Shown in pieces: positions 9,521 to 38,800 of a stretch of 64,000 nt of DNA. Numbering within the stretch: position 1 is the stretch's first letter; each line of letters begins with the position of its first letter. The position numbers and the translations under genes are program-made. The stretch is taken from the NCBI GenBank assembly GCA_903883645.1, contig CAISBR010000131.1, positions 11,871 to 75,870 of the forward strand, read 5' to 3'. Source of the DNA: an uncultured Myxococcales bacterium. GTDB lineage: Bacteria > Myxococcota_A > UBA9042. The notes beneath the pieces were generated by a model. That model was given only the letters and a program-made list of their open reading frames with translations. It made no database searches and was not told the origin of the DNA.

Positions 9521-10105
9521 CTAATGGCAACCTCCGCAGGTCTGTGTGCGGATCGTGACCTGAAAGTGCCCTTCAAAGGCGTGGCAGCTGTGGCAGTGTC
9601 CCACACCCTGCTCGTCGTGATCAAAGTGCGAGAACGTACCCGTAGGCAACTCAACTTTGGCTGGCTTCTCCGCTGCGTCGTCGTCGTCGCCCGTCGCCGT
9701 TGTCGCCGCAGGGGCCCCCGCTCCCGTCCCGCCGTCGTCCGCTGCTGTGGGTGAGGCTTCCCCAGCGGTGGCGGCAGGATTGGGAGCGGCAGGCTCCGCG
9801 GGACCGCCGGCATCACTGTCGACGGTCGCAGCTTCCGCAGGCGTTGCCGCCGCAGGTGGTTCGGCAGGAGGTGGGCCGAACGGGGTCCCCTTGCGGAAAG
9901 CTTCGAAATTGTGGCACCCAAAGCATGGTAACTTAGCAATTTTAGCAGCTCTACGGGCCTTTTCGGCCTCAGCAGCCTTGGCTGGGTCCTCGGCGGCGGC
10001 TGCGACATGGCTGGGGTCTTGCGCGGCGGCGCGTTGCCCTCCCACGACCCATGCGACCGCCGCTAGCATGGCCACCATGGCGCCTACTGCAGCGATGCGC
10101 TTCAT
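9521..10105 (-). CDS. Secreted triheme c-type cytochrome with a Pro/Ala-rich linker
   Basis: Re-called start: ATG at 10105 (GGGAGG RBS; ATGA overlap with the stop of the upstream gene). Signal peptide MKRIAAVGAMVAMLAAVAWV. CFGCH, CHSCH, CGGCH. The long N-terminal extension in the ORF track (9521..10708) lies in the same frame as the upstream gene's C-terminus and is rejected. Confidence 0.65.
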   Translation of the reverse strand: MKRIAAVGAMVAMLAAVAWVVGGQRAAAQDPSHVAAAAEDPAKAAEAEKARRAAKIAKLPCFGCHNFEAFRKGTPFGPPPAEPPAAATPAEAATVDSDAGGPAEPAAPNPAATAGEASPTAADDGGTGAGAPAATTATGDDDDAAEKPAKVELPTGTFSHFDHDEQGVGHCHSCHAFEGHFQVTIRTQTCGGCH

Positions 10106-11841: not shown

Positions 11842-11900
11842 AGGGTCCTCCGAAGCGGTTGCGTCACTCTAACCAGGGCAGCCCAACCGCATTGACCCTT

Positions 11901-11917
11901 CGCACGATGCGTGCCAA
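11901..11917 (-). promoter_or_regulatory. Candidate sigma-54 (-24/-12) promoter for the cytochrome operon
   Basis: Minus strand reads TTGGCACGCATCGTGCG: TGGCAC-N5-GTGC versus the consensus TGGCAC-N5-TTGCA, with GG/GC spacing preserved. About 60 nt upstream of the ATG at 11841 and adjacent to the NtrC-type regulator. Confidence 0.45.
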
Positions 11918-11996
11918 GTTTTTTCGTCACTTGATCTGCGTCAAGTGTTAATAGTATCGCAATGTTGTGCGATGCAGGCTCGCGAGCCCAGGCCGA

Positions 11997-12135
11997 TGTC
12001 GGGTTTGCCGGACGGCTGTCGGCATGTCCCGACAAGTCCGCTGTCGGGTTTTCCAGACAAGCATACATGCGTACTATCGATGAGATATGTGGCATGTCTG
12101 GATTTCCAGACACCCTTTGTCGGGTTTTTTGGACA
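11997..12135. promoter_or_regulatory. Array of five TGTC-N10-GACA palindromes (putative enhancer/UAS sites)
   Basis: Copies at 11997-12013 (degenerate), 12017-12034, 12042-12059, 12095-12112 (perfect TGTCTGGA-tt-TCCAGACA) and 12118-12135; consensus TGTCGGGTTTTCCAGACA. They lie 80-230 bp upstream of the candidate sigma-54 promoter, in the divergent intergenic region. Confidence 0.5.
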
Positions 12136-12289
12136 AAAGCTGCCGAGAGCGCCGACACCGGCCTCGCTAGCGGTCTGGCACCGCGCCACCCGTCACAGCA
12201 ATGTCTGAAAATCCGACACGCCTTTCGGCCTTGCGCCGCTCGCCAACACGGCTCACCATCGCTGCGACACCCACTCGCCGGGCGTAGCG

Positions 12290-14590
12290 TTGCGCGCCCA
12301 TCCGGAGGTTCCGATGCCCGTGCTTGCCCATTTGGTTCAGCGGCGATGGCGCGCGCTGCCTGCGATTGCAGGCCTGCTTTTGCTGGCGACGCCCAGTTGC
12401 CGCCTCTTTGATCCACCGGCAATTGCGCAAAAAGCTATGGCCGACATGCCGATTAAGAAGGTGGTCCTGTACCAAAACGGCGTGGGCTACTTTGAGCGGC
12501 GCGGCAAGACGAATCTCGAAAGTGTGGAGCTGCGGGTGCGGCCCGACCAGGTCAACGATGTGCTGAAGTCGTTGGCTGTGCTGGACTTAGCGGGTGGTGC
12601 GGCCTCGTCGATCTCGCTGCCGGCTGAAAAGTCTGCCGACCGGCAAGAGGCCGAGATTCCGGCACAAGTCCGCAATGCTACGGGGCTTGTGGGCATGCTT
12701 GGGGTGCTGCGCGGCGCCGATGTGACGGTCGAGACCAACTCGGATAGCTGGACCGGCCGGGTGGTGGGCGTCGAAAATCCGCCGCAGGGCAAAGACGACA
12801 AGCCGCGGCCGGCGACGGTGACGCTGCTGGTGGGCGACGATCGCCTGGTGCCCGTGCACATCGACGCGATCAAGAGGGTGACGATCGGTGATCGGGCGCT
12901 GTCGGTGGGGCTAAAGCAGAGCCTGGATGTGAGCAAGCGCGAGGGCGCGTGGAAGCCGGTGTCGCTCGAGGTGCGGCTCGCGGGCGACAAGACGCACGAC
13001 TTGCTGATCAGCTACATCCACGAAGTGCCGGTGTGGCGGCCGGCCTATCGCGCGTGGGTCGAGACCGGAAAGGGTCTGCAATTGCAGGGTTGGGCGGTGG
13101 TCGACAACACCTCGGGCGAGGACTGGAACAAGGTCAATCTGAGCTTGGTGGTCGGCGCGCCGCTGTCGTTTCGCTACGATCTGCATACGGCGCACCATGT
13201 TACGCGGCCCGACCTGTCGGTGCGGTTGCCGCAAGAGGCCGCAGCGCCGCCGTCGCCCGACTCGGGCTTTGATGCTGCGCCCGCCGAAGTGCCTGCTGCC
13301 GAAGCGGCTGCCATGCCGCCCCCCGCGCCATCGGCGGCGCCTGCGGGCAATGCCATGGCCGACGAGTCGATGGAGGATGCCAAGAAGGCATCGTCTTCTT
13401 TTGGATTTGCTGGGGCAGGCCCCGGTGGTGGAGGCATGGGCGGTGGCATGGGTGGTGGCCGGTTTGCCAAAGAGCTGCCGCCGTCGAAGGTCGCGCGGCG
13501 CGCAATGCCGGCCGAGAAGTCGAAAGAGCAAGCGGACGACGCCGAGACCGAGCGGCAGCAGCGCGATGCGGCGATCAAGAACGTGCAAGCCCTTGTAACA
13601 GGTAAGGAAGTGGGCGCCTTGTATGCCTACGAGGCCACCTATCCGGTGACCGTGCCAGACCGGTCGTCGGCGCTGATCAATATCCTAAATCGCCACTTAG
13701 AGGGTCGCGATGTGTATCTTTTCCGCGAGCCGCAGAGCGGGCAGGCGCCGTATCGGGCGGTCATGCTGCGCAACGAAAGCACGGGGCCAGGTGCGGGGGC
13801 GCTCGAAGGTGGGCCGATAACACTCTATATCGACGGCACTTTTGCGGGCGAAGGCTTTGTTGGACGCATTGCGAAGGGCGAGGTGGCCTTTGTGCCGTAC
13901 GCCCGCGAGTCGGGCAGCACCGTGAGCCAGTCGAGTGACGACAAGACGGACGAGCTGCGGCTGGTTACGGTGGTCGATGGGCGCATCCGCATCGAGGGCA
14001 AGCAGCTGCATATCCGCACATTTACTGTTGAATCGAATACGGGCAAGCCCGCGCTGGCTTACGTTAAGACTAGCGCGACGGCGGGGATGACGCTGCGGGA
14101 CCCGCCGAAAGACTTCATCAAGGCTGGCAGCGACTGGTATGTGCCGGTGCTGATGCCCGCGAAGGGCAAAGGCGAGACCAAGCTTGTAGAAGAATCGCCG
14201 GTTTCATACGAAGAACTAGATGTAACAGATCGCGCTGCGGATGCGATGGCCTTGTATCTAAAGGGTGCCAAGGTTCAAGACGCGGTGAAAGGGCCAATTG
14301 AGCAGTTGTTGATGATTCGGGCGCAAATTGGCGATATTCAACGGGATACCAAGGGTCTCGACAGTCAACGCAGCGTGCTCGACGATGAGCAGCGGCGCAT
14401 TCAGGGCAACCTCGACGCGCTGCCGGCGGGTGCGGTGGCGGCGGACCTGCGGCGGCAGCTGCTGGGCCAGCTCGAGTCCGCATCGAAGAAGGCGGGCGAA
14501 GTGGCGAAAAAGCTGGTCGAAAACGAGGTCAAGATCGCCGCGTTGCGCGAGAAGATGGTGGTGCTGCTGCGGTCAATTGCACTCAAGTAG
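12290..14590 (+). CDS. Large secreted/membrane-associated protein; possible DUF4139/DUF4140-type protein common in myxobacteria
   Basis: Signal-like N-terminus, KVVLYQNGVGYFERRG segment, long Ala/Pro/Gly-rich low-complexity linker, C-terminal coiled coil. Domain naming is from memory only. Confidence 0.5.
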   Translation: MRAHPEVPMPVLAHLVQRRWRALPAIAGLLLLATPSCRLFDPPAIAQKAMADMPIKKVVLYQNGVGYFERRGKTNLESVELRVRPDQVNDVLKSLAVLDLAGGAASSISLPAEKSADRQEAEIPAQVRNATGLVGMLGVLRGADVTVETNSDSWTGRVVGVENPPQGKDDKPRPATVTLLVGDDRLVPVHIDAIKRVTIGDRALSVGLKQSLDVSKREGAWKPVSLEVRLAGDKTHDLLISYIHEVPVWRPAYRAWVETGKGLQLQGWAVVDNTSGEDWNKVNLSLVVGAPLSFRYDLHTAHHVTRPDLSVRLPQEAAAPPSPDSGFDAAPAEVPAAEAAAMPPPAPSAAPAGNAMADESMEDAKKASSSFGFAGAGPGGGGMGGGMGGGRFAKELPPSKVARRAMPAEKSKEQADDAETERQQRDAAIKNVQALVTGKEVGALYAYEATYPVTVPDRSSALINILNRHLEGRDVYLFREPQSGQAPYRAVMLRNESTGPGAGALEGGPITLYIDGTFAGEGFVGRIAKGEVAFVPYARESGSTVSQSSDDKTDELRLVTVVDGRIRIEGKQLHIRTFTVESNTGKPALAYVKTSATAGMTLRDPPKDFIKAGSDWYVPVLMPAKGKGETKLVEESPVSYEELDVTDRAADAMALYLKGAKVQDAVKGPIEQLLMIRAQIGDIQRDTKGLDSQRSVLDDEQRRIQGNLDALPAGAVAADLRRQLLGQLESASKKAGEVAKKLVENEVKIAALREKMVVLLRSIALK

Positions 14591-19894: not shown

Positions 19895-22369
19895 TTATTT
19901 GCTAGGCTTAGTCGCTGCCGGCGCCGGCGGTACCAGCACACTCAAGCGCAGCGCACCGGTCTCGGGGTCGTAGCCGTATTGTTCCACCAGCTGGGCCGCC
20001 ACTTTCTTGCGGTCACCCTCGCTCAATGCGGCGCGGCTCAGCCAGGCCAACGCCAGCCAATGGCCCTTTTCGTCAGCAGTTTTGCTCGCTTCAGCCTTGG
20101 CGACAAAACGTGTCGCGTGGTGGCTCAAGGCCTCGAGCACCGGCTGCAAAGCCGGCTCGACCAACCGTCGCGCCAAACCTGCCGTCACACTCGCGTCGTC
20201 GGGCAGGGCCGCAGCGTGCTGGGCTTCGAGCACTTGGCCTTTGATCATCACGGTATCACTGGTGAAATCCTCGCTCACCTCGTCGAGCCCGCGATTCGTC
20301 TCGGCGCGCGGCGCGGCACCCTTGACCGCCCCTTCGACCAGCGCCAACTTGAGCTGCGCCGCCACCTTCAGCCGATGCAGCGTCACCGCGTAGCTGTACG
20401 GTAGATTGACCGGCTGCGGCATCTTGCGCGAGGTCTTTTCGGCCACATCGCGGGCGCCATCAAAGCGCTTTTGTGCAGCATCTTCGGTCTCTTGTGCCAC
20501 ACGCAGCCTGGGGGCGAGCGTCGCCAGCTTCGCGCTTTCTTCGGCAATGCGCCGGTCGTAGTACTCGACGTTGGCCTTCCACCGCAGCTGCGCCTTGGTC
20601 TGGGGGCAATCGAGCTTGCCGTCAGGGCAGGGCGACGGGGTCTTGGCGTAGGTGACCCGGTCCTCTTCGACCATCTTCTTCTTGACGTCGGCCAACTGCC
20701 CCTGCAGCTGAAACAGCTTACTTTCAGCCATGTTGGCGGCATCGCGCAGCGGGCGCGCATCGTCGGTAGCGGCGTTGAGCTTGGCCAGCTCGGCACTCAT
20801 TTTCGACTGAGCCAGCCCCCATTCGGGGTTGTCGACCAGCTCGGTATGATCCAGGAATTCTTTGGTGCGCTGCTGCTGGCTCTGACTGCGCTCGATGATC
20901 AGCTTGGGCCACGCCACTTGCAGCACGCCGTCTGTCTGCTTGCCCTTGGCCGTAGTTACCGTTTCGCCGGCTGGCCCGAGCGTGCCAATTTGCCGCACCA
21001 CCGCAGCGGCGGTCGCCTGCACGACCTGTTCGGGCACACCGGCGTGCAAGGCCCCTGCCACCGGCTTGTCGAGCGGGGCGACGCGGGTGGTCAAGTGGTA
21101 ATGGGCCGATTCCGTAAGGATGGCGGTCAGTTTGGCCTGCGCCGCATCCCGCTTGGCCTCGCTGCCCAGCACCGCCGCTGTCAACTGGCCGTACCACCAC
21201 ACCGAGCCAGCGTAACCCTTGCCTTTGGCCGCCGCAGCTTTCTTGCCAAGCGCTGCAAGTACGGGTTTCTGCACGGCGCTGGCCGTCGCTTCAAGGCCCT
21301 TTTGCAGGTCGGCGTCGGCACCGGCAATGTGCCGTGCTTCTGCGACCTTTTGCGCCGCCTCTTGCCAGCGCCCCGCGCCCAAATCGCCAACGGCGGCAGC
21401 AACTTGGCTGTCGATGACCGCCCGCGCGGCTTTGCGCCGCATCGCCAGCAATTCCTCGTCACCTGGGTGCGCAAGTAGGGCTGCATCGGCCCGCTGCAGC
21501 GCTGCGCCATGGTCGCCGGCGCCGAGCAGCGCTTTTACCGCCGCCCGATCGGCCGCTAAGGCCCCGTTCTTCTGTTGCTCTTGCCGCGCCAGCGCCACAT
21601 CGGGGTGGTCCGCCTTCCAATGTTCAGCTTCGGCCAAGCGGGCTTGCGCGGCCTCGGCATTGCCGGCCTGCCACTCCGCTCGCGCTTCGGCACTTTTCCA
21701 CGCCGCAATCAGCGGTGCCGCTCGATCGCGCAGTTCGGCCGCTGCCGGGTAATCCTTCTGCCAACCTAGCAAAAATTCAACACTATCTAAGAGCTGTGCG
21801 TACAGCGCGGCGTCTTTGGCAGCATACGACTTGCCATCCAGACGCATCAGCAGGCCGCGCACTTGACCCTGCAACATCGCGCAACGACCCCGCAATTCTG
21901 CCACGCGCCCCCGCGTCGCCATCAGACGCGTATCAATGGCATCGTAGCTCGACGCGAGGACCAGCTCGGCCTCGGCCGCCGCCAAGTCGTGGGCATTGAC
22001 ATAGCGGTTGGCCGCATCGACATGGGCTAATTCAGCTGTATTCTTGGCAGCTTGGAGCTGCTCTTGCCAAGTGGCGGCCTCGGGGCTACCCGGATGCTCC
22101 GCCAGTTGCCTGCGCAAGTGCACCACCTTAGCGTCGACGTCGTCGGGCAGGGGTGCCACTACGTCACTCGCTACTGTAGCCGGACCCGCACAGCCCATCG
22201 CCAGAAGGACCGTCGCCAGAAGGACCGTCGCCAGACCCGTTGCCGCAGCCGTCCGCTTCCAAGCTGTTGCGCCGTTTTGAAGATGTTTCTGCCAGATCAT
22301 GCAAACCTCTCCTTTAGTGTAGCGGAATACTGCGCGCCGGTGCACCGCCCTGTTCGCAAATGTTGGCAA
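19895..22369 (-). CDS. Large Ala-rich coiled-coil lipoprotein; hypothetical
   Basis: Lipobox LLAMGC after an internal Met (MIWQKHL, alternative start 22300), long heptad/coiled-coil Ala/Glu/Gln-rich body. Confidence 0.55.
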   Translation of the reverse strand: MPTFANRAVHRRAVFRYTKGEVCMIWQKHLQNGATAWKRTAAATGLATVLLATVLLAMGCAGPATVASDVVAPLPDDVDAKVVHLRRQLAEHPGSPEAATWQEQLQAAKNTAELAHVDAANRYVNAHDLAAAEAELVLASSYDAIDTRLMATRGRVAELRGRCAMLQGQVRGLLMRLDGKSYAAKDAALYAQLLDSVEFLLGWQKDYPAAAELRDRAAPLIAAWKSAEARAEWQAGNAEAAQARLAEAEHWKADHPDVALARQEQQKNGALAADRAAVKALLGAGDHGAALQRADAALLAHPGDEELLAMRRKAARAVIDSQVAAAVGDLGAGRWQEAAQKVAEARHIAGADADLQKGLEATASAVQKPVLAALGKKAAAAKGKGYAGSVWWYGQLTAAVLGSEAKRDAAQAKLTAILTESAHYHLTTRVAPLDKPVAGALHAGVPEQVVQATAAAVVRQIGTLGPAGETVTTAKGKQTDGVLQVAWPKLIIERSQSQQQRTKEFLDHTELVDNPEWGLAQSKMSAELAKLNAATDDARPLRDAANMAESKLFQLQGQLADVKKKMVEEDRVTYAKTPSPCPDGKLDCPQTKAQLRWKANVEYYDRRIAEESAKLATLAPRLRVAQETEDAAQKRFDGARDVAEKTSRKMPQPVNLPYSYAVTLHRLKVAAQLKLALVEGAVKGAAPRAETNRGLDEVSEDFTSDTVMIKGQVLEAQHAAALPDDASVTAGLARRLVEPALQPVLEALSHHATRFVAKAEASKTADEKGHWLALAWLSRAALSEGDRKKVAAQLVEQYGYDPETGALRLSVLVPPAPAATKPSK

Positions 22370-22459
22370 TCGTTGATCTGAGCGCCACCGCCGCGTTCGT
22401 CCGCGCCCCGGTTCACAAGTTCGTCAGGGCGCGCTACGCTGCCGCGCCATAAGGTCCCG

Positions 22460-23329
22460 GTGGGCCTCCGCAAAGCCATGCTCAAAGTTGCCCTTCCCAA
22501 AGGCCGAATCGCCGACAAAGTCCTGCTGCTGATGGCCGATGCTGGCTTGCCGGTGCAGATCCCCGAGCGCGGCTATCGGCCCGACTGCGCCGACGGTCGG
22601 CTGCGGATGAAGATCTTGAAAGCGCAGAATATTCCGGCACTTGTGTCCCTTACCTCGCACGACATCGGCTTTACCGGTCGCGACTGGGTGGCCGAGAATG
22701 GCTCGGATGTGGTCGAACTGCTTGACCTTGGCTTCGACCCTGTGCGCATCGTGGCGGCGGCCCCGGCGGATTGCGACGAGGCCGAGCTGCTGGCCCGCCC
22801 GCGGCTCGTAGTGGTGAGCGAGTACGAGTCGCTGACGCGGCGGTGGCTCGATGCCCGTGGCGCGCGCTACCACTTTATGCGGTCGTACGGCGCGACGGAG
22901 GTTTTCCCCCCTGAAGACGCCGACTTGATTGTCGACAATACGGCTTCAGGGCGGACGCTAGTCGAGAACAACCTGAAGATTCTCGACACTCTGCTGCGCT
23001 CGACCACCTGCCTGGTCGCCAACAAGCAGGCGCTGGATAATCCAGAGAAGCTGCGTATAATTGAAGAGTTGCTGCTGCTATTTCGCGCAGTGCTGGATGG
23101 CCGGCAGCGGGTGCTGCTCGAGATGAACATCGACGAGGCGCGCTTGGGTTTGCTGGTGCAAGCGCTGCCATGTATGAAAAGCCCTACAATTTCAAAGTTG
23201 TATGGCGACGGCGGCTTTGCGGTCAAGGTGGCGGTGCCCAAGCAAGATGTGGCCAAGCTTTTGCCCGAGCTCAAGCGCCTGGGTGCCACCGACATCCTCG
23301 AGACGGGGATTCGCAAGGTGGTGGCGTAA
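22460..23329 (+). CDS. hisG: ATP phosphoribosyltransferase, long form
   Basis: MLKVALPKGRIAD ... C-terminal regulatory domain VKVAVPKQDVAKLLPELKRLGATDILE. Alternative start at 22478. Confidence 0.85.
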   Translation: MGLRKAMLKVALPKGRIADKVLLLMADAGLPVQIPERGYRPDCADGRLRMKILKAQNIPALVSLTSHDIGFTGRDWVAENGSDVVELLDLGFDPVRIVAAAPADCDEAELLARPRLVVVSEYESLTRRWLDARGARYHFMRSYGATEVFPPEDADLIVDNTASGRTLVENNLKILDTLLRSTTCLVANKQALDNPEKLRIIEELLLLFRAVLDGRQRVLLEMNIDEARLGLLVQALPCMKSPTISKLYGDGGFAVKVAVPKQDVAKLLPELKRLGATDILETGIRKVVA

Positions 23330-25114
23330 GTGGTGGCCGGTAAGCTCGCGACTCGCTTTGATCTTTCGGCGGTGCAGGCCTACCGCATCCCCGATCGCGA
23401 GCGGGCCGGGCTGCTGCGGCTCGACGTCAATGAACACGCCGAAGGGGCGGCTGCGGCGATCGTGCAGGCGGTGCGCGACGAACTGACCGGCGAGCGGCTG
23501 GCCACCTACCCCACCTATGGCCGCTGGCACACGGTTGCGGCGCACTACTTTGGCGTGCAGCCCGAGCAAGTGACCTGCACGGCGGGCGGCGACGAGGCGA
23601 TTAAGGCGATTTTTGAAGCCTTTTTGCTGCCTGGGCGCGCTGTGGTGATGCCCGAACCTGGCTTCGACATGTTTGCGCTGTGGGCCCGCGTGTACGGTTC
23701 GCCGCTGCGGGGCGTGGCGCTCAATGCCGATTTTACCTTTAATTCAGACGCTTGGTTTGCTGCGCTCGGCGACGACGTGGGCATGGCCATCTTGACCACG
23801 CCGAACAATCCCACGGGTACGCTGGTGCCGCCCACGGTGATTGAGGCGACGCTGCAGCGCCTGAGCTGCCCCGTGCTGGTCGACGAAACCTACATTGAAT
23901 TCGTAGGTTCGAGTGCTGCGGCCTGGATCGATCGCTTTCCGAACCTGCTGGTGGTGCGGTCGTTTTCCAAGGTATATGGCCTGGCCGGTCTGCGGGCCGG
24001 GGCGGTGCTGTCTCAAGCTGAGAATATCGAAGAACTGCGCAAGCTTCTGCCCCCATTCAATGTCGCGCGCCCGGCGATCGCGGCGTCGCTGGCGGCCATG
24101 CAGAACCCCGCCATTTTGGCCGACCATGTGGCCGCGATTGGCCAAGTGCGCCAAGAATTTGCTGACCAATTGGCCGTGTTGGGGATCCAGACGGGGCCGC
24201 TGTACGCCAACTTTGTGCTGGCGCGGCTGGGTGAGCGGGCTAGCGCGCTGGTCACGGCGCTGGCGGCCGAGGGCATCTTGCTGCGCGATCGCAGTCAAAC
24301 GCACGAAAGTATGCGCGGTTGCGTGCGAATCGGCCTTGGCTCGCGGCTGCAGATGGCCCGGGTGATCGCCGCGCTGCGCAAGCACGTTGTGCCGCCGCCG
24401 ACACTGCAAGCGCTGATTTTTGATATGGATGGCCCGCTGGTCGACACCGCGCGCTCGTACCGCGTGGCGATTGTGCAGACCGCCCAGACCTTGCTGGCTC
24501 GCTATGGGGCGCCCGACGCGGTGGTGGCCCAGGCCAACTTGGATGCGGTCGAAAAGCTGAAGCGACGCGGCGGCTTGAACAACGATTGGGATTGTTGCCA
24601 CGCCCTGATCGTGCAGCTTGGTGGGGCGGTGGGGTACGAGCAGGTGGTCGCGACCTTCCAAGAGCTGTACTGGGGCGAAGACGGCGATGGACTGATTTTG
24701 CAAGAAGAATTCTGTGTGCCAACAGAGTTGCGCGGGCAGATTCGCGCGACCTATGCCACCGCCATTGTGACGGGCAGGCCGCGCATCGAGGCGTTGCGAG
24801 CGCTACAAATTGCAGGTGCAACGGATACTTGGACCCCCGAGCGTGTGTTTGCGCATGAAGATGGACCCGCCAAGCCCGCGCCAGGCGGGATCTTGCAGAT
24901 GCTGCAGCTTGTGGGGGTGGCCGCCGGGCAGGCCGCGTATCTAGGTGATTCTGTAGATGATATGCGCGCCGCGCGTGCGGCCGGTGTGCGGGCTATCGGT
25001 GTGCTGCCGCCGCAGGCGAACTGGCACGATGGGCTGTGCGAGCGCCTAGTCGAGGCGGGCGCCGAGTGGGTTTTTGCCAATGTTGCCGAGGTGATGCGAT
25101 GGTTGCAGGCGTAA
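23330..25114 (+). CDS. hisC: Histidinol-phosphate aminotransferase fused to a C-terminal HAD phosphatase domain (putative histidinol-phosphatase)
   Basis: Aminotransferase class I/II body (TTPNNPTG, PLP-Lys context RSFSKVYGLAGLRAG). At ~aa 375 a HAD domain follows, with motif I IFDMDGPLVDT and motif IV YLGDSVDDMRAARAAG. Single uninterrupted ORF. Confidence 0.8.
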   Translation: MVAGKLATRFDLSAVQAYRIPDRERAGLLRLDVNEHAEGAAAAIVQAVRDELTGERLATYPTYGRWHTVAAHYFGVQPEQVTCTAGGDEAIKAIFEAFLLPGRAVVMPEPGFDMFALWARVYGSPLRGVALNADFTFNSDAWFAALGDDVGMAILTTPNNPTGTLVPPTVIEATLQRLSCPVLVDETYIEFVGSSAAAWIDRFPNLLVVRSFSKVYGLAGLRAGAVLSQAENIEELRKLLPPFNVARPAIAASLAAMQNPAILADHVAAIGQVRQEFADQLAVLGIQTGPLYANFVLARLGERASALVTALAAEGILLRDRSQTHESMRGCVRIGLGSRLQMARVIAALRKHVVPPPTLQALIFDMDGPLVDTARSYRVAIVQTAQTLLARYGAPDAVVAQANLDAVEKLKRRGGLNNDWDCCHALIVQLGGAVGYEQVVATFQELYWGEDGDGLILQEEFCVPTELRGQIRATYATAIVTGRPRIEALRALQIAGATDTWTPERVFAHEDGPAKPAPGGILQMLQLVGVAAGQAAYLGDSVDDMRAARAAGVRAIGVLPPQANWHDGLCERLVEAGAEWVFANVAEVMRWLQA

Positions 25115-25707
25115 CGCGACGCGGTGTGGTCGAGCGCACGACCCAAGAGACTCAAATTCGCTGCGAAGTCGACCTGGATGGGGTCGGCAAGTCGGAGATC
25201 GCGTGTCCGATCGGCTTTCTTGGCCACATGCTCGAGGCGCTCGCCCGCCACGCGCACCTGGACCTTGTGCTGACGATTGCCGGTGATCTGCATGTGGATC
25301 AGCACCATACGGTCGAAGACACCGGGCTAGTGCTGGGGCAAGCGCTGCGGCAGGCCTTGGGCGACCGGCGCGGCATTTGGCGTTGCGGCGACGCGCGCTT
25401 TCCGATGGACGAAGCGCTGGCCGAGTGCGCCATCGACATCGCGGGCAGGCCGTATCTTAGCTTCGACGTTACGTTTTCGCGGCCGTTCTTGGGTGAGCTG
25501 CAGAGTGACCTAGTGCACGAGTTCTTTGCGGCGGTGGCGATGGGCTTGGGCGCCAATGTGCATCTGCGGCTGTTGTCGGGCGACAACGACCACCACAAAT
25601 GCGAAGCCGTTTTCAAGGCCTTTGCCCGTTCGCTCGAGCTGGCGGTGGCGCGCCATCCGCGGGCGGTCAGCGAGGTGCCAAGCACGAAGGGTGCGCTGGA
25701 TTCGTGA
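25099..25707 (+). CDS. hisB: Imidazoleglycerol-phosphate dehydratase (monofunctional)
   Basis: Re-called start ATG 25099 (MVAGVTRRG), 16-nt overlap with hisC. IGPD motifs DLHVDQHHTVEDTG, HEFFAAVA, ANVHLR. Confidence 0.85.
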   Translation: MVAGVTRRGVVERTTQETQIRCEVDLDGVGKSEIACPIGFLGHMLEALARHAHLDLVLTIAGDLHVDQHHTVEDTGLVLGQALRQALGDRRGIWRCGDARFPMDEALAECAIDIAGRPYLSFDVTFSRPFLGELQSDLVHEFFAAVAMGLGANVHLRLLSGDNDHHKCEAVFKAFARSLELAVARHPRAVSEVPSTKGALDS

Positions 25708-25743
25708 GGAAATACTTGAGGGTCGGCGCTCTGTTGCACCCAA

Positions 25744-27624
25744 TTGCCGCACCTCGCACATTCGCCGCACTTGCCGTATCCTTGGCCTGCGCTGCCTCCA
25801 ATTGCAGCCCGTGATCGCATGTCGAGCGCTGAGTCCATTTTGTCGCCAACCGTGCCACCGCCGCCCGAGCTGCGGCCAGCCGATGTGCGGCTTGCGGCGG
25901 TTTCTGAGGTGGCGCGCGCACTTTCGGCGCCGTGGACGGTTGACGAGCTGCTCGATCTGGTGATGGACCGGCTCACCTGGGCGCTCGACGCGGACCGCTC
26001 GACGCTGTTCTTGGTCGACGGCGACGCCCTGTGGTCCAAGATTACCCGTGGCGGCGATGCCGCGCAGTTTCGCGTGCCGATCGGCGTGGGCGTCGTAGGT
26101 TGGGTGGCGCAGCGGCGCCGCGGCGTAAACGTGAAAAATGCCTACGATGATCCCCGGTTTGATCCCAGCTGGGACCAGGTGACTGGCTACACGACCCGCT
26201 CGCTGCTGTGCCAGCCCGTGCTCGACCGCGAAGAGAACCTGGTGGGCGTGGTGCAGGTGCTGAACAAGCGCGGCGGCTACTTCCATGTCGACGACGAGCG
26301 CCTGCTGTCGACGATCCTGTCGATGACCGCGATCTCGATTGTGAACGCGCAGTTGGCGAATCAATTGGCGGTGAAGAACGACGAGCTGCTGAAGACTCAG
26401 GGGGATCTTGCCGACCGCGTGCGCGAAATCGACATGCTGTACGACCTAGAACGCGAGGTGGCGCGGGCGCCGACCTTTGACGATGCGGTGCGGGCGGTGG
26501 TCGAGCGCGTGAGCTACACCCTGCACGCCGACTTGCTGCAGGTGGCGGTGCGCACCGAGGGCGGCGGTCTGGTCCTGTATCGCGCGCTAGGGCCTGACTT
26601 TTTTGAGGTGCTGCCCCTGCCGGAGGCCCGTGGGCTGGTGGCGCGGGTCTTCGCCGAGCCCAAGCGTTACAACCCCTGCGACATGCCGCGCGACGAGCTG
26701 AAACGTGCGGCGGCAGAAGAACAATTGCCCTGGGTGCCGGCGGCGGGGCTGTGCGTGCCCCTTGAGCGCGACGACGGCTTGGTGGGGGCGCTGGCGGTCT
26801 ACTGGAAGCCCGGTCGCCACACTTGCATGACCGAAGATCAGGTGCGGGTTGTCGAATTGACCGCCGACCAGATTGGCCACGCTTTGGCGCAGCGCCAGGC
26901 CCGCCAGCAGCAAGAGCGCGAAGAACGGCTGTCGGCGATCGGTCGGGCCCTGGCCAGCATTGTCCACGACCTAAAGACGCCGATGACCGTGGCGAGCGGC
27001 TATGTGCAACTGCTTAAAATCGAAGATGATGAGGGCGAGCGGGTCAGCTTGGCCGACGGTGTGCTCGAGCAGCTGCGGCGGATGAACGAGATGACCCGCG
27101 AGGTGCTGGGCTTTGCCCGTGGCGACAGCGAGCTGCTGCTGGTAAAGGTGGTGATGCCCGATTTCGCCAAGGACCTGCAACGTCTGTTCGAGTCGGTGTT
27201 CGCAGATTCGCAGACCCACTTTACGATTGAATGCTTGGACCGCGGTTTTGCCCGTATCGATGCCGGGCGGGTCATGCGCGCCGTGCAGAACATTGCCCGC
27301 AACGCGCGCGAGGCCTTGGGCAGCGTGCACCCGCATCGCTTCGACGTTAAAATCCTGAGCGAGAGCAGCGACTTGCTGATTCTGTGCAGCGACGACGGTC
27401 CGGGCGTGCCGCGGGAATTTCAGCACCGCCTGTTCGAAGCCTTCGCTACGCACGGCAAGGCGGAAGGTACCGGCCTAGGGCTGGCGATGGTCAAGCAAAC
27501 CGCAGACTTGCATGGCGGTACCGTGGTCTATCGCGAGACGCCGGGCGGCGGCGCGACCTTTGAGCTGCGTTTGCCGCGCGATTCGCGACTGGGCCGCACT
27601 ACGGCGCCGGCGCCCCAGGCCTAG
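25744..27624 (+). CDS. Cytoplasmic tandem-GAF sensor histidine kinase
   Basis: Two GAF-like domains, H-box LASIVHDLKTPM, HATPase DDGPGVPREFQHRLFEAF...GTGLGLAMV. Confidence 0.8.
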   Translation: MPHLAHSPHLPYPWPALPPIAARDRMSSAESILSPTVPPPPELRPADVRLAAVSEVARALSAPWTVDELLDLVMDRLTWALDADRSTLFLVDGDALWSKITRGGDAAQFRVPIGVGVVGWVAQRRRGVNVKNAYDDPRFDPSWDQVTGYTTRSLLCQPVLDREENLVGVVQVLNKRGGYFHVDDERLLSTILSMTAISIVNAQLANQLAVKNDELLKTQGDLADRVREIDMLYDLEREVARAPTFDDAVRAVVERVSYTLHADLLQVAVRTEGGGLVLYRALGPDFFEVLPLPEARGLVARVFAEPKRYNPCDMPRDELKRAAAEEQLPWVPAAGLCVPLERDDGLVGALAVYWKPGRHTCMTEDQVRVVELTADQIGHALAQRQARQQQEREERLSAIGRALASIVHDLKTPMTVASGYVQLLKIEDDEGERVSLADGVLEQLRRMNEMTREVLGFARGDSELLLVKVVMPDFAKDLQRLFESVFADSQTHFTIECLDRGFARIDAGRVMRAVQNIARNAREALGSVHPHRFDVKILSESSDLLILCSDDGPGVPREFQHRLFEAFATHGKAEGTGLGLAMVKQTADLHGGTVVYRETPGGGATFELRLPRDSRLGRTTAPAPQA

Positions 27625-34066: not shown

Positions 34067-35740
34067 GTGACACTCTTGAGACAGAAACGCGCAGTTGCAG
34101 CGCGGGTGATTGGGCCGACCTGGCAGCCGTGCTATCGTCGTGCTGCCCGCCGTAGCGGGTCGATGGCGCCCATGGCCCGCCGCGGCATTAAACCCCCTGA
34201 AAAGAAAACGAGTCGCCCGGCCGCAACGCTGGGGTCGCCGCTGCTGACGGGCGAAGTGGGCACCCTGTGGCGGCGCGCGCCGACGGAAGTGGTGCTGTGC
34301 TACGCCAACAGCTACCGCGTGGCTGCGTCGAGCCTGGGCTTTCAGCTCATTTACCGCGAGCTGAACCGTCGCGACGATATGGCCTGCCACCGCGCCGTGT
34401 TCGAGCCTCTCGCGGTGCGCGGGCCGTTGCCGCCGATTCGCTCGCTCGAGTACGGCAAGCGCCTCGACGACTACGATGCGATCTTGCTGTCGCTGGCCTA
34501 CGAGCTTGATCTGGCGAATCTTGCTTTGATGCTAGAGGCTTGTGGCCTGTCGCCCCTGGCGAGTGAGCGGCCGGAGTCGGCGCCGCCGCTGATTGTGGGT
34601 GGGCCGGTCACGACCTCGAATGTGCTGCCGCTGGCCGTGTTTGCCGATGTGGTGGTCATGGGCGAGGCCGACGAGCTGATTGTGCAACTGACCGATGTGC
34701 TGGCGCAGCGACCGTCGCGGGCTGAGTTGCGGCGCTGGGCGCTGACGGTGCCGGGCCTTTGGGTGCCGGCAGAGCAGGGCGATGCGGTGCCGGCGCTGCT
34801 GCCGGTGGGCGCGCATTGTCTGCCAGCTTTGGGGCAATTTCGCAGTCCGAATGCTGAGTTTAGCGACATGATGCTGCTCGAGGCGAGCCGTGGCTGTCCG
34901 CGCTATTGCAGCTTTTGCGTGGTCCGCGCCCCCTTGGCGCCGATGCGCGAGCCCGAGCTTGATCGCGTGGTGGCAGCGCTCGATCGCCCTGAATTTGCTT
35001 CGAGTCCGCGGGTTGGCCTTGTGGGCGCGGCCGTGAGCGACTGGGGGCCGATCAAGGGCGCGATGCGCGCCATCATCGAACGTGGCAAAACCTTTGGAAT
35101 TTCGAGCTTGCGGGCCGATCGCTTGGACGAAGACGACGAGTTTGTCGACTTGTTGTACCAGGGCGGTTACCGAACCATGACAGTCGCGTCGGATGCCCCC
35201 AGCCAGCGCATGCGCAACAAGCTGAAAAAAGGTATTCGCGAAAGGCACTTATGGGGCTCGGCCCTGCAGGCGCGGCGCGTGGGCATGAACGGCTTCAAGA
35301 TGTATCTGATCATCGGTTTGCCGGGCGAAGAGGCCGAAGATATCGACGAACTCATCGCGTTTTGCCAGCGCTTGTCGACGCAGGTGCGCACCGCGATTAC
35401 ACTATCGCCCTTTGTGCCCAAGCTGCATACCCCGCTGGCGGCGGCGGAATTTGCCGATCCCGACGCGACCCAGGCGACGTTGCGGCGCATTCAGGCGGCC
35501 CTGGCCGAGCGGGTGGATGTGCGCTTCGACGCGCCGAAGTGGGCCTGGGTCGAGTATCGGCTGAGCCAAGGTGGCATGGCGACAGGGCTTGCCGCGATCG
35601 AGGCTGCGCGCAATGGCGGTGGATCAACGGCGTGGCGGCGGGCGTTGGCGGCCCTGGATGCTCGCGATGCTACAGAAGAACGAGCGGCACTGGCGGCGGC
35701 GGAGCGGCACAAACTGTGGCCGGCGACCGGCGAACGCTGA
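34067..35740 (+). CDS. B12-binding-domain radical SAM protein
   Basis: N-terminal cobalamin-binding-like Rossmann segment, radical SAM cluster motif SRGCPRYCSFC (Cx3Cx2C). Alternative start 34163. Confidence 0.7.
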   Translation: MTLLRQKRAVAARVIGPTWQPCYRRAARRSGSMAPMARRGIKPPEKKTSRPAATLGSPLLTGEVGTLWRRAPTEVVLCYANSYRVAASSLGFQLIYRELNRRDDMACHRAVFEPLAVRGPLPPIRSLEYGKRLDDYDAILLSLAYELDLANLALMLEACGLSPLASERPESAPPLIVGGPVTTSNVLPLAVFADVVVMGEADELIVQLTDVLAQRPSRAELRRWALTVPGLWVPAEQGDAVPALLPVGAHCLPALGQFRSPNAEFSDMMLLEASRGCPRYCSFCVVRAPLAPMREPELDRVVAALDRPEFASSPRVGLVGAAVSDWGPIKGAMRAIIERGKTFGISSLRADRLDEDDEFVDLLYQGGYRTMTVASDAPSQRMRNKLKKGIRERHLWGSALQARRVGMNGFKMYLIIGLPGEEAEDIDELIAFCQRLSTQVRTAITLSPFVPKLHTPLAAAEFADPDATQATLRRIQAALAERVDVRFDAPKWAWVEYRLSQGGMATGLAAIEAARNGGGSTAWRRALAALDARDATEERAALAAAERHKLWPATGER

Positions 35741-35838
35741 AACCCGCACCCCGAGCACGCCTTGCCAGTTGTCGAACGGCGGCAGTAACTGCATCCTATG
35801 GTGAGTCGGGCCGGCCAGCCCGCAGCCGAGGCTACGCC

Positions 35839-38800
35839 GTGCTCCCAACCCATCGCAGAATTCTTTCACTGTGGTTTCAAGTGCTTCTTAGCCTTGTGGC
35901 CGTATTTGCGACCGCCAGCTGCGGCGACGGTGCCTCGAGCCACCCCTGGGCCATCACCGGCGTACCGTGCCCAACCAGCAAAAGCCGCTGCGCCGAGCTG
36001 TGCGTCGACCTGAAGGCGGACCCCATCAACTGCGGCGAATGCGGCCACGGCTGCGGCCTGGGCGAGGTCTGCTCGCTGGGCAAGTGCGCGCTGTTCTGCG
36101 CCGACCCCTTGGTCGACTGCGGTGGCCTGTGCGCCGACCTTCGCACCGATGTGGCCCACTGCGGCACCTGCTCGACCGGTTGCCCCAAGGGCAGCGTGTG
36201 CCAAAACAGCAAGTGCGAGCTCAGCTGTATCGACGGCGATGTACCGTGCGGCGGCGCCTGTGCCAACTTGCAGGCGGACCCCAAGCACTGCGGCAAGTGC
36301 GAAAAATCGTGTGTCGGCGAAGAGTTCTGCAGCTCGGGCGAATGCAAACTGCCGTGCACCGGCGGCCAGCTGCAGTGCGGCGACAAGTGTGTCGATCTAG
36401 CGAGTGACGTAAGCAACTGTGCCGGCTGCGGCCAGACCTGCCCCGCGGGCAACTGGTGCGTCAATGCCAAGTGCGTGCCCACGTGCCAAGTTGGCATGGC
36501 GGAGTGCGGTGCGGCGTGTGTCGACCTAGATAACGACTTGAATCACTGTGGCAATTGCGACAAGGTCTGCGCGGCTGGCCAAGTGTGCAGCAAGGGGCAA
36601 TGCACCGCCGCTTGTGCCACGGGCCAGATCGAGTGCGGCGGCAAGTGCAGCGACCCCAAAGAGGATTCAACCCATTGTGGCGACTGCGAAACAGCGTGCA
36701 AGGCCGGCCAGTTGTGCTCGGGCGGCAAGTGCACACTGTCGTGCCAAGAAGGCCTGATTGATTGCGAGGGCGTGTGCGCCAACCCCAAGACCGACATTAC
36801 CCATTGCGGCGGCTGCTACCAACCGTGCGCCACCGGCAGCGTCTGTGTCGACGGCGCGTGCAGCTTGGCCTGCCCCGGCACCATGACCGGCTGCGAAGAC
36901 GGCCTGTGCGCCGACTTGACCACCGACCCCTTGCACTGCGGCAGCTGCAGCACCGTCTGCGCACCCGGCGAGAAGTGCACCGGCGGCAAATGCCTGCTGT
37001 CGTGCCAGAGCGGTTTTGAAGTGTGCGCGGGCACTTGCGTAGACTACGCCAGCAACAACCAGCACTGCGGCGACTGCGAAACCAGCTGCGCCACCGGCCA
37101 GCAGTGCAAGAATGGCAAGTGCGTCCTCGACTGCCAGCCGGGCCTGAGCGCGTGCGGCGGCACCTGTGTCGACGTCTCGACCAACAACGCGAACTGCGGC
37201 GATTGCGACCAGCCATGTCCGCTCGGCCACGTCTGCCAAGCCGGCAACTGCAAGCTTAGCTGCCAGCAAGGCATGGATGAGTGCAGCGGCACGTGCAGCA
37301 ATCTGAAAACCGACGAATTGCACTGCGGATCCTGCGACAAGCAATGCGCGTCGGGCATGATCTGCGTCAACGGCAAGTGCACGCCCGACTGCCCGGTCAG
37401 CCAGGTCAATTGTGGTGGCAACTGTTCGGATTTGCAGGTAGACCACCAGCACTGCGGCGACTGCGACACGGCGTGCTCGTCGGGCGAAATCTGCTTTAGC
37501 GGCAAGTGCGTGTCGAGCTGCAAGTCGCCCCTGCTCGGCTGCGGCAACGTGTGCATCGACCCCAATTTTGACCCCAACAACTGCGGCGATTGCGGCCAAG
37601 TCTGCCAACTGCCCAACGCGGTAGCGCCGGCGTGCATGGGCGGGGCTTGCCAAGTCACTACGTGCCAAGACGGCTACGCCAACTGCGACAACCAGTCGGC
37701 GAATGGCTGTGAAATCGAGCTAAAATCAAGTGGTTTGCACTGCGGCGCCTGCAATAAGGTGTGCACGTTGTTCAAGGCCATCCCCTCGTGCCAAGACGGC
37801 AAGTGCGTCGTCACCGCGTGCGAAGAGGGCTGGGGCGACTGCAACGGCAACGCTGACGACGGCTGCGAGCAAGACCTGGGCACCTCGGCGGCCAACTGTG
37901 GCGGTTGCGGCATCAAGGTCGCGGCCGGCGAAGTTTGCTGCGGCGCCAAGCCCGTCGTGGGCAGCAGCTATGCCACCGACTCGAACAACTGTGGCGCGTG
38001 CGGCAACGTCTGTGGCAGCGGCCAGGTGTGCTGCGGCGGCTTCTGCTACACGGTCGACGGAAGCAAAATCTGCCCCGATTGCGGCAAGTTGTGCAACGTA
38101 GCCGAAGTCAGTGGCAACAAGTTCATCACCACCGGTGCGGTCAGCAAGCTAGAAGCGTCGGGTTCGGGCATTAGCACCGTATCGAACGAGGGCGGCAAGA
38201 ATCAGGTCGCCACGCCCCGGGTGTGGATCGCCGCCCACGACTCGAACTTGGTGAACCGCCTCGACACCGGGTCCGGCAAATTGATGAGCGTGTTCCCATC
38301 GTTCGGCAGCAATCCGTCGCGCGGCGCGGTGGCACTCGACGACACGTTCTGGATTGGCAACCGCTGCCCGAGCGACGCCAACAACCCCAAGTGCAGCAAC
38401 GTCGCGCAGTTGAACAGCGACGGCACGCTGGGCTGCTTGGTGGGCAACGCCGCTGACGGCGCGCCGCTGCCGCTGGTTCGGGCGATCGCGGTCGATGACC
38501 AGGGCTTTATCTGGCTCGGCACCTGGAACGACGCGCGTATCCACAAGATCGACCCGTTAGCCTGCAAAACGATTGCCGATTACACCGTTCCCGTCGGTGC
38601 TAGCCCTTATGGCTTCGCGATCGACAGCACTGGCTTGCTCTGGATCAGCAGCCCCAACGGCCCGACCGAGCCGCTCCGCTCGTTCGACACCAAGACCGGC
38701 AAGTTGGTCGACAGCGTAGCGCGCAACTCGAACACCTATGGCGTGGTGGTCGACGGCGATAGCAACGTGTGGTTCGCGTCGTGGTGCACGCCCAACGTGC

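Follow-up and report, generated by a model that had tools for sequence, protein, structure and literature searches.

Within histidine biosynthesis, only the step of histidinol-phosphate phosphatase (HolPase) is not conserved. When amino-acid pathways are reconstructed automatically, no other step is so often of low confidence, and GapMind reported it missing in 28% of 148 prototrophs (PMC7311316). Among the described enzymes, nmHisN (Nmar_1556) of Nitrosopumilus maritimus is a specific histidinol-phosphate phosphatase in vitro, with a kcat of 0.79 s-1 and a KM of 73 uM, and none of nine other phosphoesters tried was dephosphorylated by it (PMC10804674). toHisN of Thermococcus onnurineus is a monofunctional HAD-type HolPase (Lee et al. 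2008, as cited in PMC10804674). Replacement of Asp25 by Ala in nmHisN caused a ~220-fold loss in kcat/KM (PMC10804674). Arg at this position was reported for Euryarchaeota (cluster II) and delta-Proteobacteria; these homologues were termed 'likely HolPases', and the same authors brought the HolPase function of the variant 'into question' (PMC10804674). Fusion of these homologues to HisC finds no mention in PMC10804674.

The 64-kb window, that is the whole stretch of DNA analysed, contains a three-gene his cluster composed of hisG, a HisC::HAD ORF of 594 aa and a hisB of 202 aa with the IGPD domain only. The first-pass annotation had placed this cluster at 22460-25707 with a HAD domain at the C-terminal end of the hisC ORF and a short monofunctional hisB, and the ORFs were found as described. 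The features are given below.

22460 to 23329, forward strand: hisG, long-form ATP phosphoribosyltransferase of 289 aa, first gene of the cluster (Pfam, NCBIfam)
23330 to 25114, forward strand: fused hisC::hisN ORF, 594 aa plus stop, aminotransferase followed by putative HAD phosphatase (uninterrupted ORF)
23330 to 24388, forward strand: HisC domain, residues 1-353 (best NCBIfam match TIGR01141)
24389 to 24409, forward strand: short Pro-rich linker VPPPTLQ, residues 354-360, from the last HisC helix to the first HAD strand (AF2)
24410 to 25111, forward strand: HAD subfamily-IA phosphatase domain, residues 361-594, putative histidinol-phosphate phosphatase (NCBIfam, AF2, hhalign)
24422 to 24430, forward strand: HAD motif I DxD, nucleophile D365 and general acid/base D367 as predicted (invariant in 17- and 50-sequence alignments)
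24431 to 24769, forward strand: all-helical C1 cap, residues 368-480, carrying the substrate-specificity positions (AF2, hhalign)
24770 to 24784, forward strand: HAD motif II within the family signature TGRPR, T481-R485 (17- and 50-sequence alignments)
24872 to 24874, forward strand: HAD motif III lysine K515 (17- and 50-sequence alignments)
24947 to 24961, forward strand: HAD motif IV DSVDD, with D540 and D544 as Mg2+-binding acidic residues (invariant columns)
25099 to 25707, forward strand: hisB, monofunctional imidazoleglycerol-phosphate dehydratase of 202 aa (Pfam IGPD 1.5e-59)

The hisG product matched Pfam HisG (3.8e-36) and HisG_C (3.2e-20) and scored 142.8 bits against NCBIfam TIGR00070, above the cutoff of 75.75. 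The hisB ORF spans 25036-25707 with its likely start at ATG 25099, the same start being given by an independent gene call. The three genes look translationally coupled: the hisG stop codon TAA (23327-23329) is immediately followed by the GTG start codon of hisC, and the first 16 nt of hisB overlap the end of the fusion ORF. The hisB product scored 253.6 bits against NCBIfam NF002111 (cutoff 231) and matched the bifunctional-HisB model over its IGPD half only (model positions 166-355); no phosphatase half was found in it by Pfam and NCBIfam. Pfam scan of the fusion protein and of ~50 ORFs from the window found no PHP or IMPase domain. A second HAD-like ORF is situated at 3551-4405 of the window, and no class was assignable to it. 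The window covers 64 kb of the genome, and a further HolPase may be encoded outside it.

The 594-aa protein recurred without any change on 18 contigs (read from 24 blocks of the Logan assembly collection, ENA and NCBI), and an independent gene call on these contigs gave the same three genes. Homologous fusions of equal length and architecture were present at 82%, 78%, 64% and lower identity, and the two-domain HisC::HAD architecture was shared by over 100 clusters (90% identity). The HAD family comprises ~720 representatives at 50% identity (E <= 1e-30), and the HisC extension was present in 77 of the 150 best representatives (50%-identity clusters). The closest named relatives of the window fusion are proteins from Deltaproteobacteria/Myxococcales MAGs. 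Fused proteins carry in the databases only the names 'histidinol-phosphate transaminase' or 'aminotransferase class I/II-fold', and no paper describing a HisC::HAD fusion was found in the literature. The architecture had been called unfamiliar; with respect to textbooks this holds, but in sequence databases it is very common under the aminotransferase label.

In other lineages (Acidobacteriota, Thaumarchaeota), unfused hisC and HAD genes often lie end to end or overlap, therefore one indel could mimic a fusion and the single ORF could be two adjacent genes merged by sequencing or assembly error. The probability of such merging is practically nil against the identical product on 18 contigs, the diverged homologues of equal length and architecture, the 77 fused representatives and a linker which is kept in frame in an alignment of 50 fusions and is confidently modelled. 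A frameshift or assembly artefact is thereby excluded for the fused ORF. In the AF2 model, a helix (339-353) precedes the linker and a strand (361-364) follows it, and the block of residues 351-360 which includes the linker has a mean pLDDT of 96. The full-length fusion was modelled with pLDDT 95.1 and pTM 0.90; since the linker is confident along with this pTM, the model suggests a defined inter-domain arrangement. The two domains proposed earlier stand with altered sizes, about 352 and 237 aa instead of ~370 and ~220 aa.

Pfam Aminotran_1_2 matched residues 29-349 of the fusion (E 6e-48). The motifs of fold-type I aminotransferases are present, namely SFSK with the PLP lysine K214, D185-E-T-Y188 and PNNPTG (158-163), and N34, Y60, D185, Y188, S213-K214, R222 and R333 are invariant across the 50 fusions. 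TIGR01141 (hisC) was the best of 87 models for this domain with 258.5 bits, which misses its cutoff of 276.55 by 18 bits, and the CobD model TIGR01140 was second with 173.6 bits. As Rv3772-type aromatic aminotransferases were also among the structural matches, these scores could be read as those of a paralogue, a CobD-like threonine-phosphate decarboxylase or aromatic aminotransferase, with the whole protein acting in another pathway. This is very unlikely, as the hisC model leads the CobD model by 85 bits and the orthologous HisC domain of a triple fusion (P0445) passes the TIGR01141 cutoff with 284.1 bits. The top phmmer matches in PDB were all HisC (5e-42 to 1e-36), for example 7szp (5e-42) and E. 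coli 1fg3 (2e-39), and Foldseek aligned the domain to HisC structures with TMt 0.85-0.89. The position of the gene between hisG and hisB, with apparently coupled translation, also argues for a true HisC.

The C-terminal domain matched Pfam HAD/Hydrolase over fusion residues 360-558 (E 3e-13), with Hydrolase and HAD_2 both above their cutoffs, and was modelled alone by AF2 with pLDDT 95.7. All the four catalytic HAD motifs (DxD, T/S, K and (G)DxxxD) are intact. The motif I string IFDMDGPLVDT occupies residues 363-373 (nt 24416-24448) and motif IV reads GDSVDD; these two motifs were noted as intact by the first-pass annotation, and their D365/D367 and D540/D544 are present in invariant columns. 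In the TGRPR signature T, G and R483 are invariant, and P484 and R485 reach a conservation of at least 90%. K515 does not vary among the 17 aligned sequences and is conserved to at least 90% over the 50 fusions. The cap consists of ~110 residues forming seven helices (at least 4 residues each) between the motif-I and motif-II strands, and has a 9-residue insertion in the 17-sequence alignment. It carries the specificity positions Y377, R378, I381, V407, K411 and D419, the last one within NNDW (417-420). It is exceedingly improbable that the domain is catalytically dead, a vestigial structural or regulatory appendage of HisC: in 50 fusions from many phyla, the four motifs and the cap fingerprint show little or no variation, which indicates purifying selection on catalysis.

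Domain search placed the C-terminal part in HAD subfamily IA. The best NCBIfam HAD model was TIGR01548, a hypothetical equivalog, matched over its full length (1-197) with 114-117 bits, below the cutoff of 140.2, and a stand-alone relative (P0131) which is 37% identical to the window domain passes this model with 155 bits. The HisB-N type was rejected for this domain on the basis of the TIGR01656 score (41.9 bits, cutoff 84.15) and the presence of the C1 cap. The earlier idea that the phosphatase of HisB had been relocated onto HisC does not hold, as the domain is of the TIGR01548-like subfamily-IA type.

The HAD domain belongs, by profile comparison, to the C1-capped family of archaeal phosphatases represented by nmHisN and toHisN. 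The thaumarchaeal comparison set consisted of 25 metagenomic nmHisN-type proteins which fit the published description of Nmar_1556, in place of its deposited sequence, and in which the seven residues mapped in nmHisN are present at equal relative spacing, the absolute residue numbering not being reproduced. On AT-rich contigs, their genes are flanked by hisC and hisB. The hhalign comparison of the window-family profile with this set gave a probability of 99.94% (E 6.7e-37, 228 columns), and blastp gave a best E of 1e-12 at ~20-23% identity. The positions of the window domain and nmHisN correspond as Y377 to Y24, R378 to D25, I381 to I28, V407 to I52, K411 to K56 and D419 to E64. The I-x3-K-x7-D spacing is identical to nmHisN, D419 is Asp as in toHisN, and the Y24 equivalent is Tyr in most family members examined. 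One of the four published specificity residues deviates in the window domain, with Arg378 in place of Asp25, and Arg was found at this position in 305 of 456 collected family proteins.

This substitution leaves room for a phosphatase acting on another substrate, with fusion to HisC serving regulation or co-expression and not step 8. Phosphoglycolate- or sugar-phosphate-type housekeeping activity, imidazole-acetol phosphate or another histidine intermediate would be the candidates. The closest solved structures are likewise generic C1-cap HADs of ~20% identity with varied substrates, and roughly every second family locus of the reference genomes does not adjoin his genes, many members in haloarchaea, Bathyarchaeia and an acidobacterial paralogue group being situated away from them. 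Such a role is unlikely when set against the inactivity of the characterised relative on other phosphoesters (PMC10804674) and the fusion or adjacency of the HAD to hisC and hisB in many phyla. Among 80 reference-genome loci of the HAD family, 14 had the hisC::HAD fusion followed by a short hisB and ~23 had an unfused HAD gene in his context (21 as hisC-HAD-hisB, one as HAD-hisC-hisB and one as HAD-hisB). The hisC-HAD-hisB order recurs across phyla, fused or unfused. MAGs of Gammaproteobacteria (Kangiellaceae, Lysobacterales) which encode the fusion also have a hisB of ~190-200 aa with the IGPD domain only.

Further evidence against another substrate comes from Rosetta-stone fusions and from two otherwise complete his operons. 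HisC::HAD::IGPD was found in two proteins (P0444, P0445), the Y-R-K-D fingerprint of P0445 being that of the window, and HisG::HisC::HAD in one (P0353). One operon (L082/L083) is ordered hisI-hisG-prs-hisE-hisD-[hisC::HAD::hisB]-hisH-hisA-hisF and the other, of Kangiella, hisG-[hisC::HAD]-hisB-hisH-hisA-[hisF::hisIE]-hisD. All other steps are encoded in both, and the HAD domain, with no additional domain beside it, is the sole candidate for step 8.

The 594-aa protein is therefore very probably a bifunctional histidine enzyme, on comparative sequence grounds, in which HisC carries out step 7 and the HAD domain of the nmHisN family step 8. The placement of the step-8 phosphatase on the step-7 enzyme, as claimed in the first-pass annotation, is strongly supported by the homology to nmHisN, the gene order, the triple fusions and the operons. 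The HisC domain would convert imidazole-acetol phosphate to L-histidinol phosphate in a PLP-dependent reaction, the HAD domain would hydrolyse this to L-histidinol with Mg2+, and the short HisB would catalyse step 6 only. By standard HAD chemistry, D365 would form the aspartyl-phosphate intermediate with D367 as general acid/base, while T481, K515, D540 and D544 would bind phosphate and Mg2+. The cap residues Y377, R378, K411 and D419 are predicted to recognise the histidinol moiety. The fusion would guarantee 1:1 expression and proximity of HisC and HAD, and would couple the reversible transamination with an irreversible hydrolysis. It may also permit the histidinol-phosphate channeling raised in the first-pass annotation. 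A more far-reaching proposal is rather doubtful: a HisC::HolPase(::IGPD) of fixed geometry might hand histidinol phosphate straight on from one active site (PLP) to the other (HAD), with the Arg378 cap representing a distinct mode of recognition, and might be the main bacterial solution of the 'missing HisN'. Its scope may include Myxococcota, Acidobacteriota, Melainabacteria, several DPANN lineages, Microgenomates and some Gammaproteobacteria.

The fusion is a new architectural variant of an already characterised phosphatase family, and reveals neither new chemistry nor a new protein family. It is useful for annotation: the evidence would put step 8 on an unannotated domain, for which the NCBI model says only 'TIGR01548 family HAD-type hydrolase'. 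Independent evidence for the Arg-for-Asp25 variant as a genuine HolPase also comes from the fusions and from the two operons.

Compared with known systems, the window domain shares with nmHisN and toHisN the HAD subfamily with a single large helical C1 cap, homology over the full length, the specificity Tyr, Lys and Asp/Glu with two accessory hydrophobic residues, and the hisC-HAD-hisB neighbourhood. It differs in its covalent position at the C-terminus of HisC, while nmHisN and toHisN are monofunctional, in a cap ~70 residues shorter than that of the thaumarchaeal nmHisN-type proteins, and in Arg378 against Asp25 of nmHisN. With the delta-proteobacterial and euryarchaeal cluster II homologues of nmHisN it shares Y-R-K-D and Ile/Val at the accessory positions. 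The paHisN/SerB-like HolPases of beta- and gamma-Proteobacteria are also of the HAD superfamily and also fill the 'missing HisN' gap, but were recruited independently from phosphoserine phosphatases with another cap (PMC5764234; Kinateder 2023/2024), have the different fingerprint D16-D18-Y47 and are unfused to HisC. Mannitol-1-phosphate dehydrogenase/phosphatase MtlD of Acinetobacter baumannii (7ocs and related), which turned up in the structure search with the HAD domain, also joins a C1-capped HAD to the maker of its phosphorylated substrate; this is an analogy only, as the pathway is unrelated, the HAD is N-terminal and the identity is ~18%. HisB of E. coli and Salmonella likewise joins a HAD-superfamily HolPase for the step 8 reaction to another histidine enzyme. 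HisB-N of E. coli is of the HAD-IIIA ('DDDD') type without C1 cap while the window domain is C1-capped and of subfamily IA, and its partner is a C-terminal IGPD of the non-consecutive step 6 while here it is an N-terminal HisC of the consecutive step 7. Unlike E. coli HisB, HisC::HAD joins consecutive enzymes and would therefore offer a clean system in which channeling can be told from stoichiometry alone.

The three open reading frames of the first-pass annotation, hisG, a hisC::HAD fusion and hisB, were all found as it described them:

22460-23329, forward strand, hisG, 289 aa, long form with HisG_C domain
23330-25114, forward strand, hisC::HAD fusion ORF, 594 aa
25036-25707, forward strand, hisB ORF, probable start ATG at 25099, 202 aa

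The GTG start of the 594-aa ORF directly abuts the stop codon of hisG, and the start region of hisB overlaps the end of the fusion ORF by 16 nt. Such abutting and overlapping ends are typical of translationally coupled operons. The two-domain reading of the fusion ORF was borne out by Pfam, which placed Aminotran_1_2 at residues 29-349 and HAD/Hydrolase at 360-558. The best NCBIfam model for the N-terminal half is hisC TIGR01141 (258.5 bits, below the cutoff of 276.55) and for the C-terminal half TIGR01548 'HAD-type hydrolase' (114-117 bits, below the cutoff of 140.2). The hisB gene is monofunctional, as had been proposed; it matched IGPD models only, and the bifunctional HisB model aligned over the dehydratase half alone. 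The cluster neighbours are unrelated to histidine, namely an upstream 824-aa protein on the opposite strand and a downstream GAF-containing histidine kinase. The 824-aa protein (19895-22369, reverse strand) is Ala-rich, has no Pfam match and is transcribed divergently from hisG; it also adjoins the cluster on other contigs with the identical fusion, where it is called as 801 aa. A promoter and terminator scan of 22200-26000 gave nothing exceeding shuffle expectation, and Rfam detected no leader or riboswitch close to the his cluster.

A frameshift or sequencing error could in principle have merged two genes into the single ORF. In the assembly collection (24 blocks read), 18 contigs carry the identical 594-aa protein, and genes called independently on one of these contigs come in the same order of hisG, 594-aa fusion and 202-aa hisB. 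A word-indexed search recovered more than 100 clusters at 90% identity sharing the two-domain architecture (~545-650 aa; 82% down to about 30% identity), with named matches from Deltaproteobacteria/Myxococcales, Calditrichia, Aminicenantes, Woesearchaeota and Kangiella. Deltaproteobacteria/Myxococcales MAGs are the nearest named relatives. When 1.84 billion 50%-identity representatives were searched exhaustively with an HMM, 720 family members were found at E <= 1e-30. Among the best 150 of these 720, the N-terminus is extended by 300 aa or more in 77 and by less in 18 (the 3 checked were truncated fusions), and 55 are stand-alone HAD proteins. On the basis of the contigs with the identical protein, the homologue clusters and the 77/150 fused members, the HisC::HAD fusion is real, and no other architecture is as common in its close relatives (best 150 of 720); an artefactual single ORF is effectively excluded. 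In a neighbour-joining tree of the HAD domains the fused forms occurred in several clades, mixed with unfused forms; fusion or fission events could not be counted on so crude a tree, and no number of them is claimed.

In the aminotransferase half, the PLP lysine K214 and the HisC residues D185, Y188, R222 and R333 are invariant, and the best sequence and fold matches are HisC. An aminotransferase other than HisC is unlikely in view of how the models rank, what the structures match and where the gene lies.

The HAD half contains the four catalytic motifs in conserved form (D365/D367, T481 in TGRPR, K515 and D540/D544), and a catalytically dead domain is effectively excluded. In the very confident AlphaFold2 model of the domain (pLDDT 95.7) the core is Rossmann-like, and motif I is followed by an inserted C1 cap, all-helical and ~110 residues long. 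PDB sequence and fold searches returned no close solved structure, the best matches being assorted C1-capped HADs of about 20% identity; by these searches the family is without a solved structure. The first-pass annotation had regarded the phosphatase as apparently relocated from HisB, which did not hold. TIGR01656, the model of HisB-N (the phosphatase half of E. coli bifunctional HisB), scored 41.9 bits on the domain (cutoff 84.15), and no large C1 cap is present in HisB-N; for these reasons the phosphatase was not moved from HisB. Judged by these profiles, the domain is an independent recruitment from another HAD subfamily.

A HAD gene between hisC and hisB is known from Nitrosopumilus maritimus, where Nmar_1556 (nmHisN) was characterized as a specific Mg2+-dependent histidinol-phosphate phosphatase (HolPase) with toHisN of Thermococcus onnurineus as a relative (Kinateder et al., Protein Sci 2024, PMC10804674). 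Its functional fingerprint comprises four cap residues, Y24, D25, K/R56 and D/E64, with I28 and I52 as accessory residues (PMC10804674). Homologues with Arg instead of Asp25 were reported from Euryarchaeota and two small delta-proteobacterial clusters; they were named 'likely HolPases', yet the Arg was said to put this function in question (PMC10804674). None of 80 reference-genome loci from the HAD alignment scan belonged to Thaumarchaeota or Thermococcales, and among 120 listed of 3159 matches from an archaeal-biased profile protein search there was neither a thaumarchaeal protein nor one with the Y-D-K-E fingerprint. Metagenomes scanned with a DNA pattern yielded ~98 AT-rich contigs (28-40% GC), each encoding a HAD protein of ~300-325 aa flanked by hisC and hisB; hisG often lies upstream. 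These thaumarchaeal-type proteins follow the sequence pattern 'IIFDCDGVLIDITKSYDLAI...IIDGFKSTGGFNDEVD', and in 12 of the ~98 contigs all seven residues named for nmHisN are spaced relative to one another as in that enzyme. The match is in spacing only: with an ATG 28 residues ahead of the first Asp, these proteins do not reproduce the published absolute numbering (Tyr24). In a profile-profile comparison, the window family aligned with 25 of these metagenomic proteins, which fit the published description of Nmar_1556 and stand in for Nmar_1556 itself, at 99.94% probability (E 6.7e-37), the 228 aligned columns covering the full HAD domain.

Residues of the window protein and their nmHisN counterparts in the profile-profile alignment
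Y377 = Y24
R378 = D25
I381 = I28
V407 = I52
K411 = K56
D419 = E64

By this residue map the window domain is the 'Y-R-K-D' variant reported for delta-Proteobacteria (PMC10804674). Arg378 thus occupies the place of a functionally important Asp, hinting at the possibility that the domain is a phosphatase for a different substrate.

Genomic context bears on this possibility from both sides. When 80 family loci from species-representative genomes were sorted by the genes adjoining the HAD gene, 14 showed a fused hisC::HAD with a short hisB immediately after it and, in most cases, hisG before it; these were from Myxococcota, Kangiellaceae, Lysobacterales, Aminicenantes, Gastranaerophilales, Brocadiaceae, Microgenomates and Micrarchaeota. 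About 23 of the 80 had a separate HAD gene in his context. The order was hisC-HAD-hisB in 21 of them, mainly Acidobacteriota along with one Woesearchaeote, while one archaeal locus was HAD-hisC-hisB and one Atribacterota locus HAD-hisB. The remaining loci are stand-alone HAD genes, and the many family members outside his context make a different substrate conceivable. They include an acidobacterial paralogue group with another fingerprint, in which F/Y-[Q/H/W] replaces Y-R and NDDW replaces NNDW. These paralogues do not lie beside his genes and may differ in substrate specificity:

L020-L022, L029, L031-L034, L037, L040, L042-L043, L047-L049, L051, L053, L055-L059, acidobacterial paralogue loci

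A different substrate would, however, leave two his operons and the triple fusions unexplained. HisC::HAD::IGPD fusions were found in the family proteins P0444 (751 aa) and P0445 (762 aa), and a HisG::HisC::HAD fusion in P0353 (764 aa). The P0445 operon reads hisI-hisG-prs-hisE-hisD-[hisC::HAD::hisB]-hisH-hisA-hisF; all other steps are encoded, step 8 has no candidate besides the HAD domain, and the fingerprint of this domain is Y-R-K-D, as in the window. The same gap-filling logic applies to the Kangiella operon, hisG-[hisC::HAD]-hisB(198 aa)-hisH-hisA-[hisF::hisIE]-hisD. Features of these operons are:

L082/L083, 6001-8289, HisC::HAD::IGPD, 762 aa, steps 6-8
L082/L083, 3491-4486, PRPP synthetase gene prs, between hisG and hisE
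L084 (Kangiella sp. GCA_014762745.1), 11726-12964, 412-aa His_biosynth (HisF) + PRA-CH + PRA-PH (HisI, HisE), an apparent hisF::hisIE triple fusion beside hisC::HAD

Taken together, the recurrent his context, the triple fusions and the two operons are strong evidence, of the Rosetta-stone and gap-filling kind, for the HAD domain as the pathway phosphatase, and the context supports a HolPase role for the Arg variant in particular. Another HAD-like ORF in the window (3551-4405, forward strand) was considered as a rival HolPase. It gave only weak generic HAD matches (PF00702, without a specific family) and lies directly downstream of an ATP-grasp ligase-like gene (2215-3489, forward strand); hence nothing ties it to histidine.

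The two domains are joined by a 7-residue Pro-rich linker. The full-length AlphaFold2 model (pLDDT 95.1, pTM 0.90) is confident in the linker too, which suggests that the domains pack in a defined way and are not loosely tethered. The PDB fold search found no entry spanning both HisC and HAD domains. HisC is normally active as a dimer. In the proposed working of the fused protein, histidinol phosphate made by the HisC domain would be hydrolysed by the HAD domain via an aspartyl-phosphate on D365, and the cap residues would recognise the imidazole and amino groups. Fusion would provide 1:1 stoichiometry and proximity, and the irreversible hydrolysis could pull the reversible transamination. Histidinol phosphate might also be channeled between the two active sites.

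Other features of the window are:

8417-9439, 10102-11841, 57806-61801, all reverse strand, two multihaem c-type cytochrome genes and two adjacent Ser/Thr kinase genes
35251-39522, forward strand, 1423-aa ORF with 11 Stig1-like cysteine-rich repeats and beta-propeller-like matches
43972-44059, reverse strand by Rfam, two identical 27-nt repeats 61 nt apart, matching Rfam CRISPR-DR4 (28-nt model)
44979-45056, three 36-nt copies spaced 21 nt
45324-45608, four overlapping 114-nt copies at 57 nt spacing, 66-73% identity to the reference copy
47669-48577, 52375-53547, 53737-53811, all reverse strand, two tyrosine-recombinase (phage integrase) genes and tRNA-Arg(TCT)

One cytochrome is fused to a cytochrome b561-like domain and the kinases are of eukaryotic type; both gene pairs are in keeping with the Myxococcota-like affiliation to which the closest named homologues point. 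The true start of the 1423-aa ORF is uncertain, as a radical-SAM gene (34067-35740) ends within this ORF. The 43972-44059 repeats are a predicted one-spacer CRISPR mini-array; the Pfam-scanned ORFs flanking it gave no Cas domains, several having no match at all. The copies at 45324-45608 are consistent with a 57-nt period, and both tandem repeats lie in a region without Pfam-annotated genes. One integrase gene directly adjoins the tRNA gene. Many ORFs of the ~39-52 kb stretch lack a Pfam match, and G+C drops slightly at ~44-52 kb; the stretch may be an integrated element.

A literature search covering few subscription journals found no description of a HisC-HolPase fusion or of the triple fusions. 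The HisC fusion is absent from Kinateder et al. 2024 (PMC10804674), the reviews of his-gene fusions examined do not include hisC fusions, and current annotation resources do not name the phosphatase activity of the HAD domain. Since HisN is the most frequent low-confidence step (PMC7311316), the fusion is useful for annotation, and HisC::HAD offers a tidy model for the fusion of consecutive enzymes. The enzyme family and its reaction are already known (toHisN 2008; nmHisN 2024), and the delta-proteobacterial Arg variant had been flagged in silico (PMC10804674). The thaumarchaeal nmHisN-type proteins possess ~70 more cap residues than the window domain. With no surprise in chemistry or fold, what appears to be new here is the covalent HisC fusion architecture on a known enzyme family.
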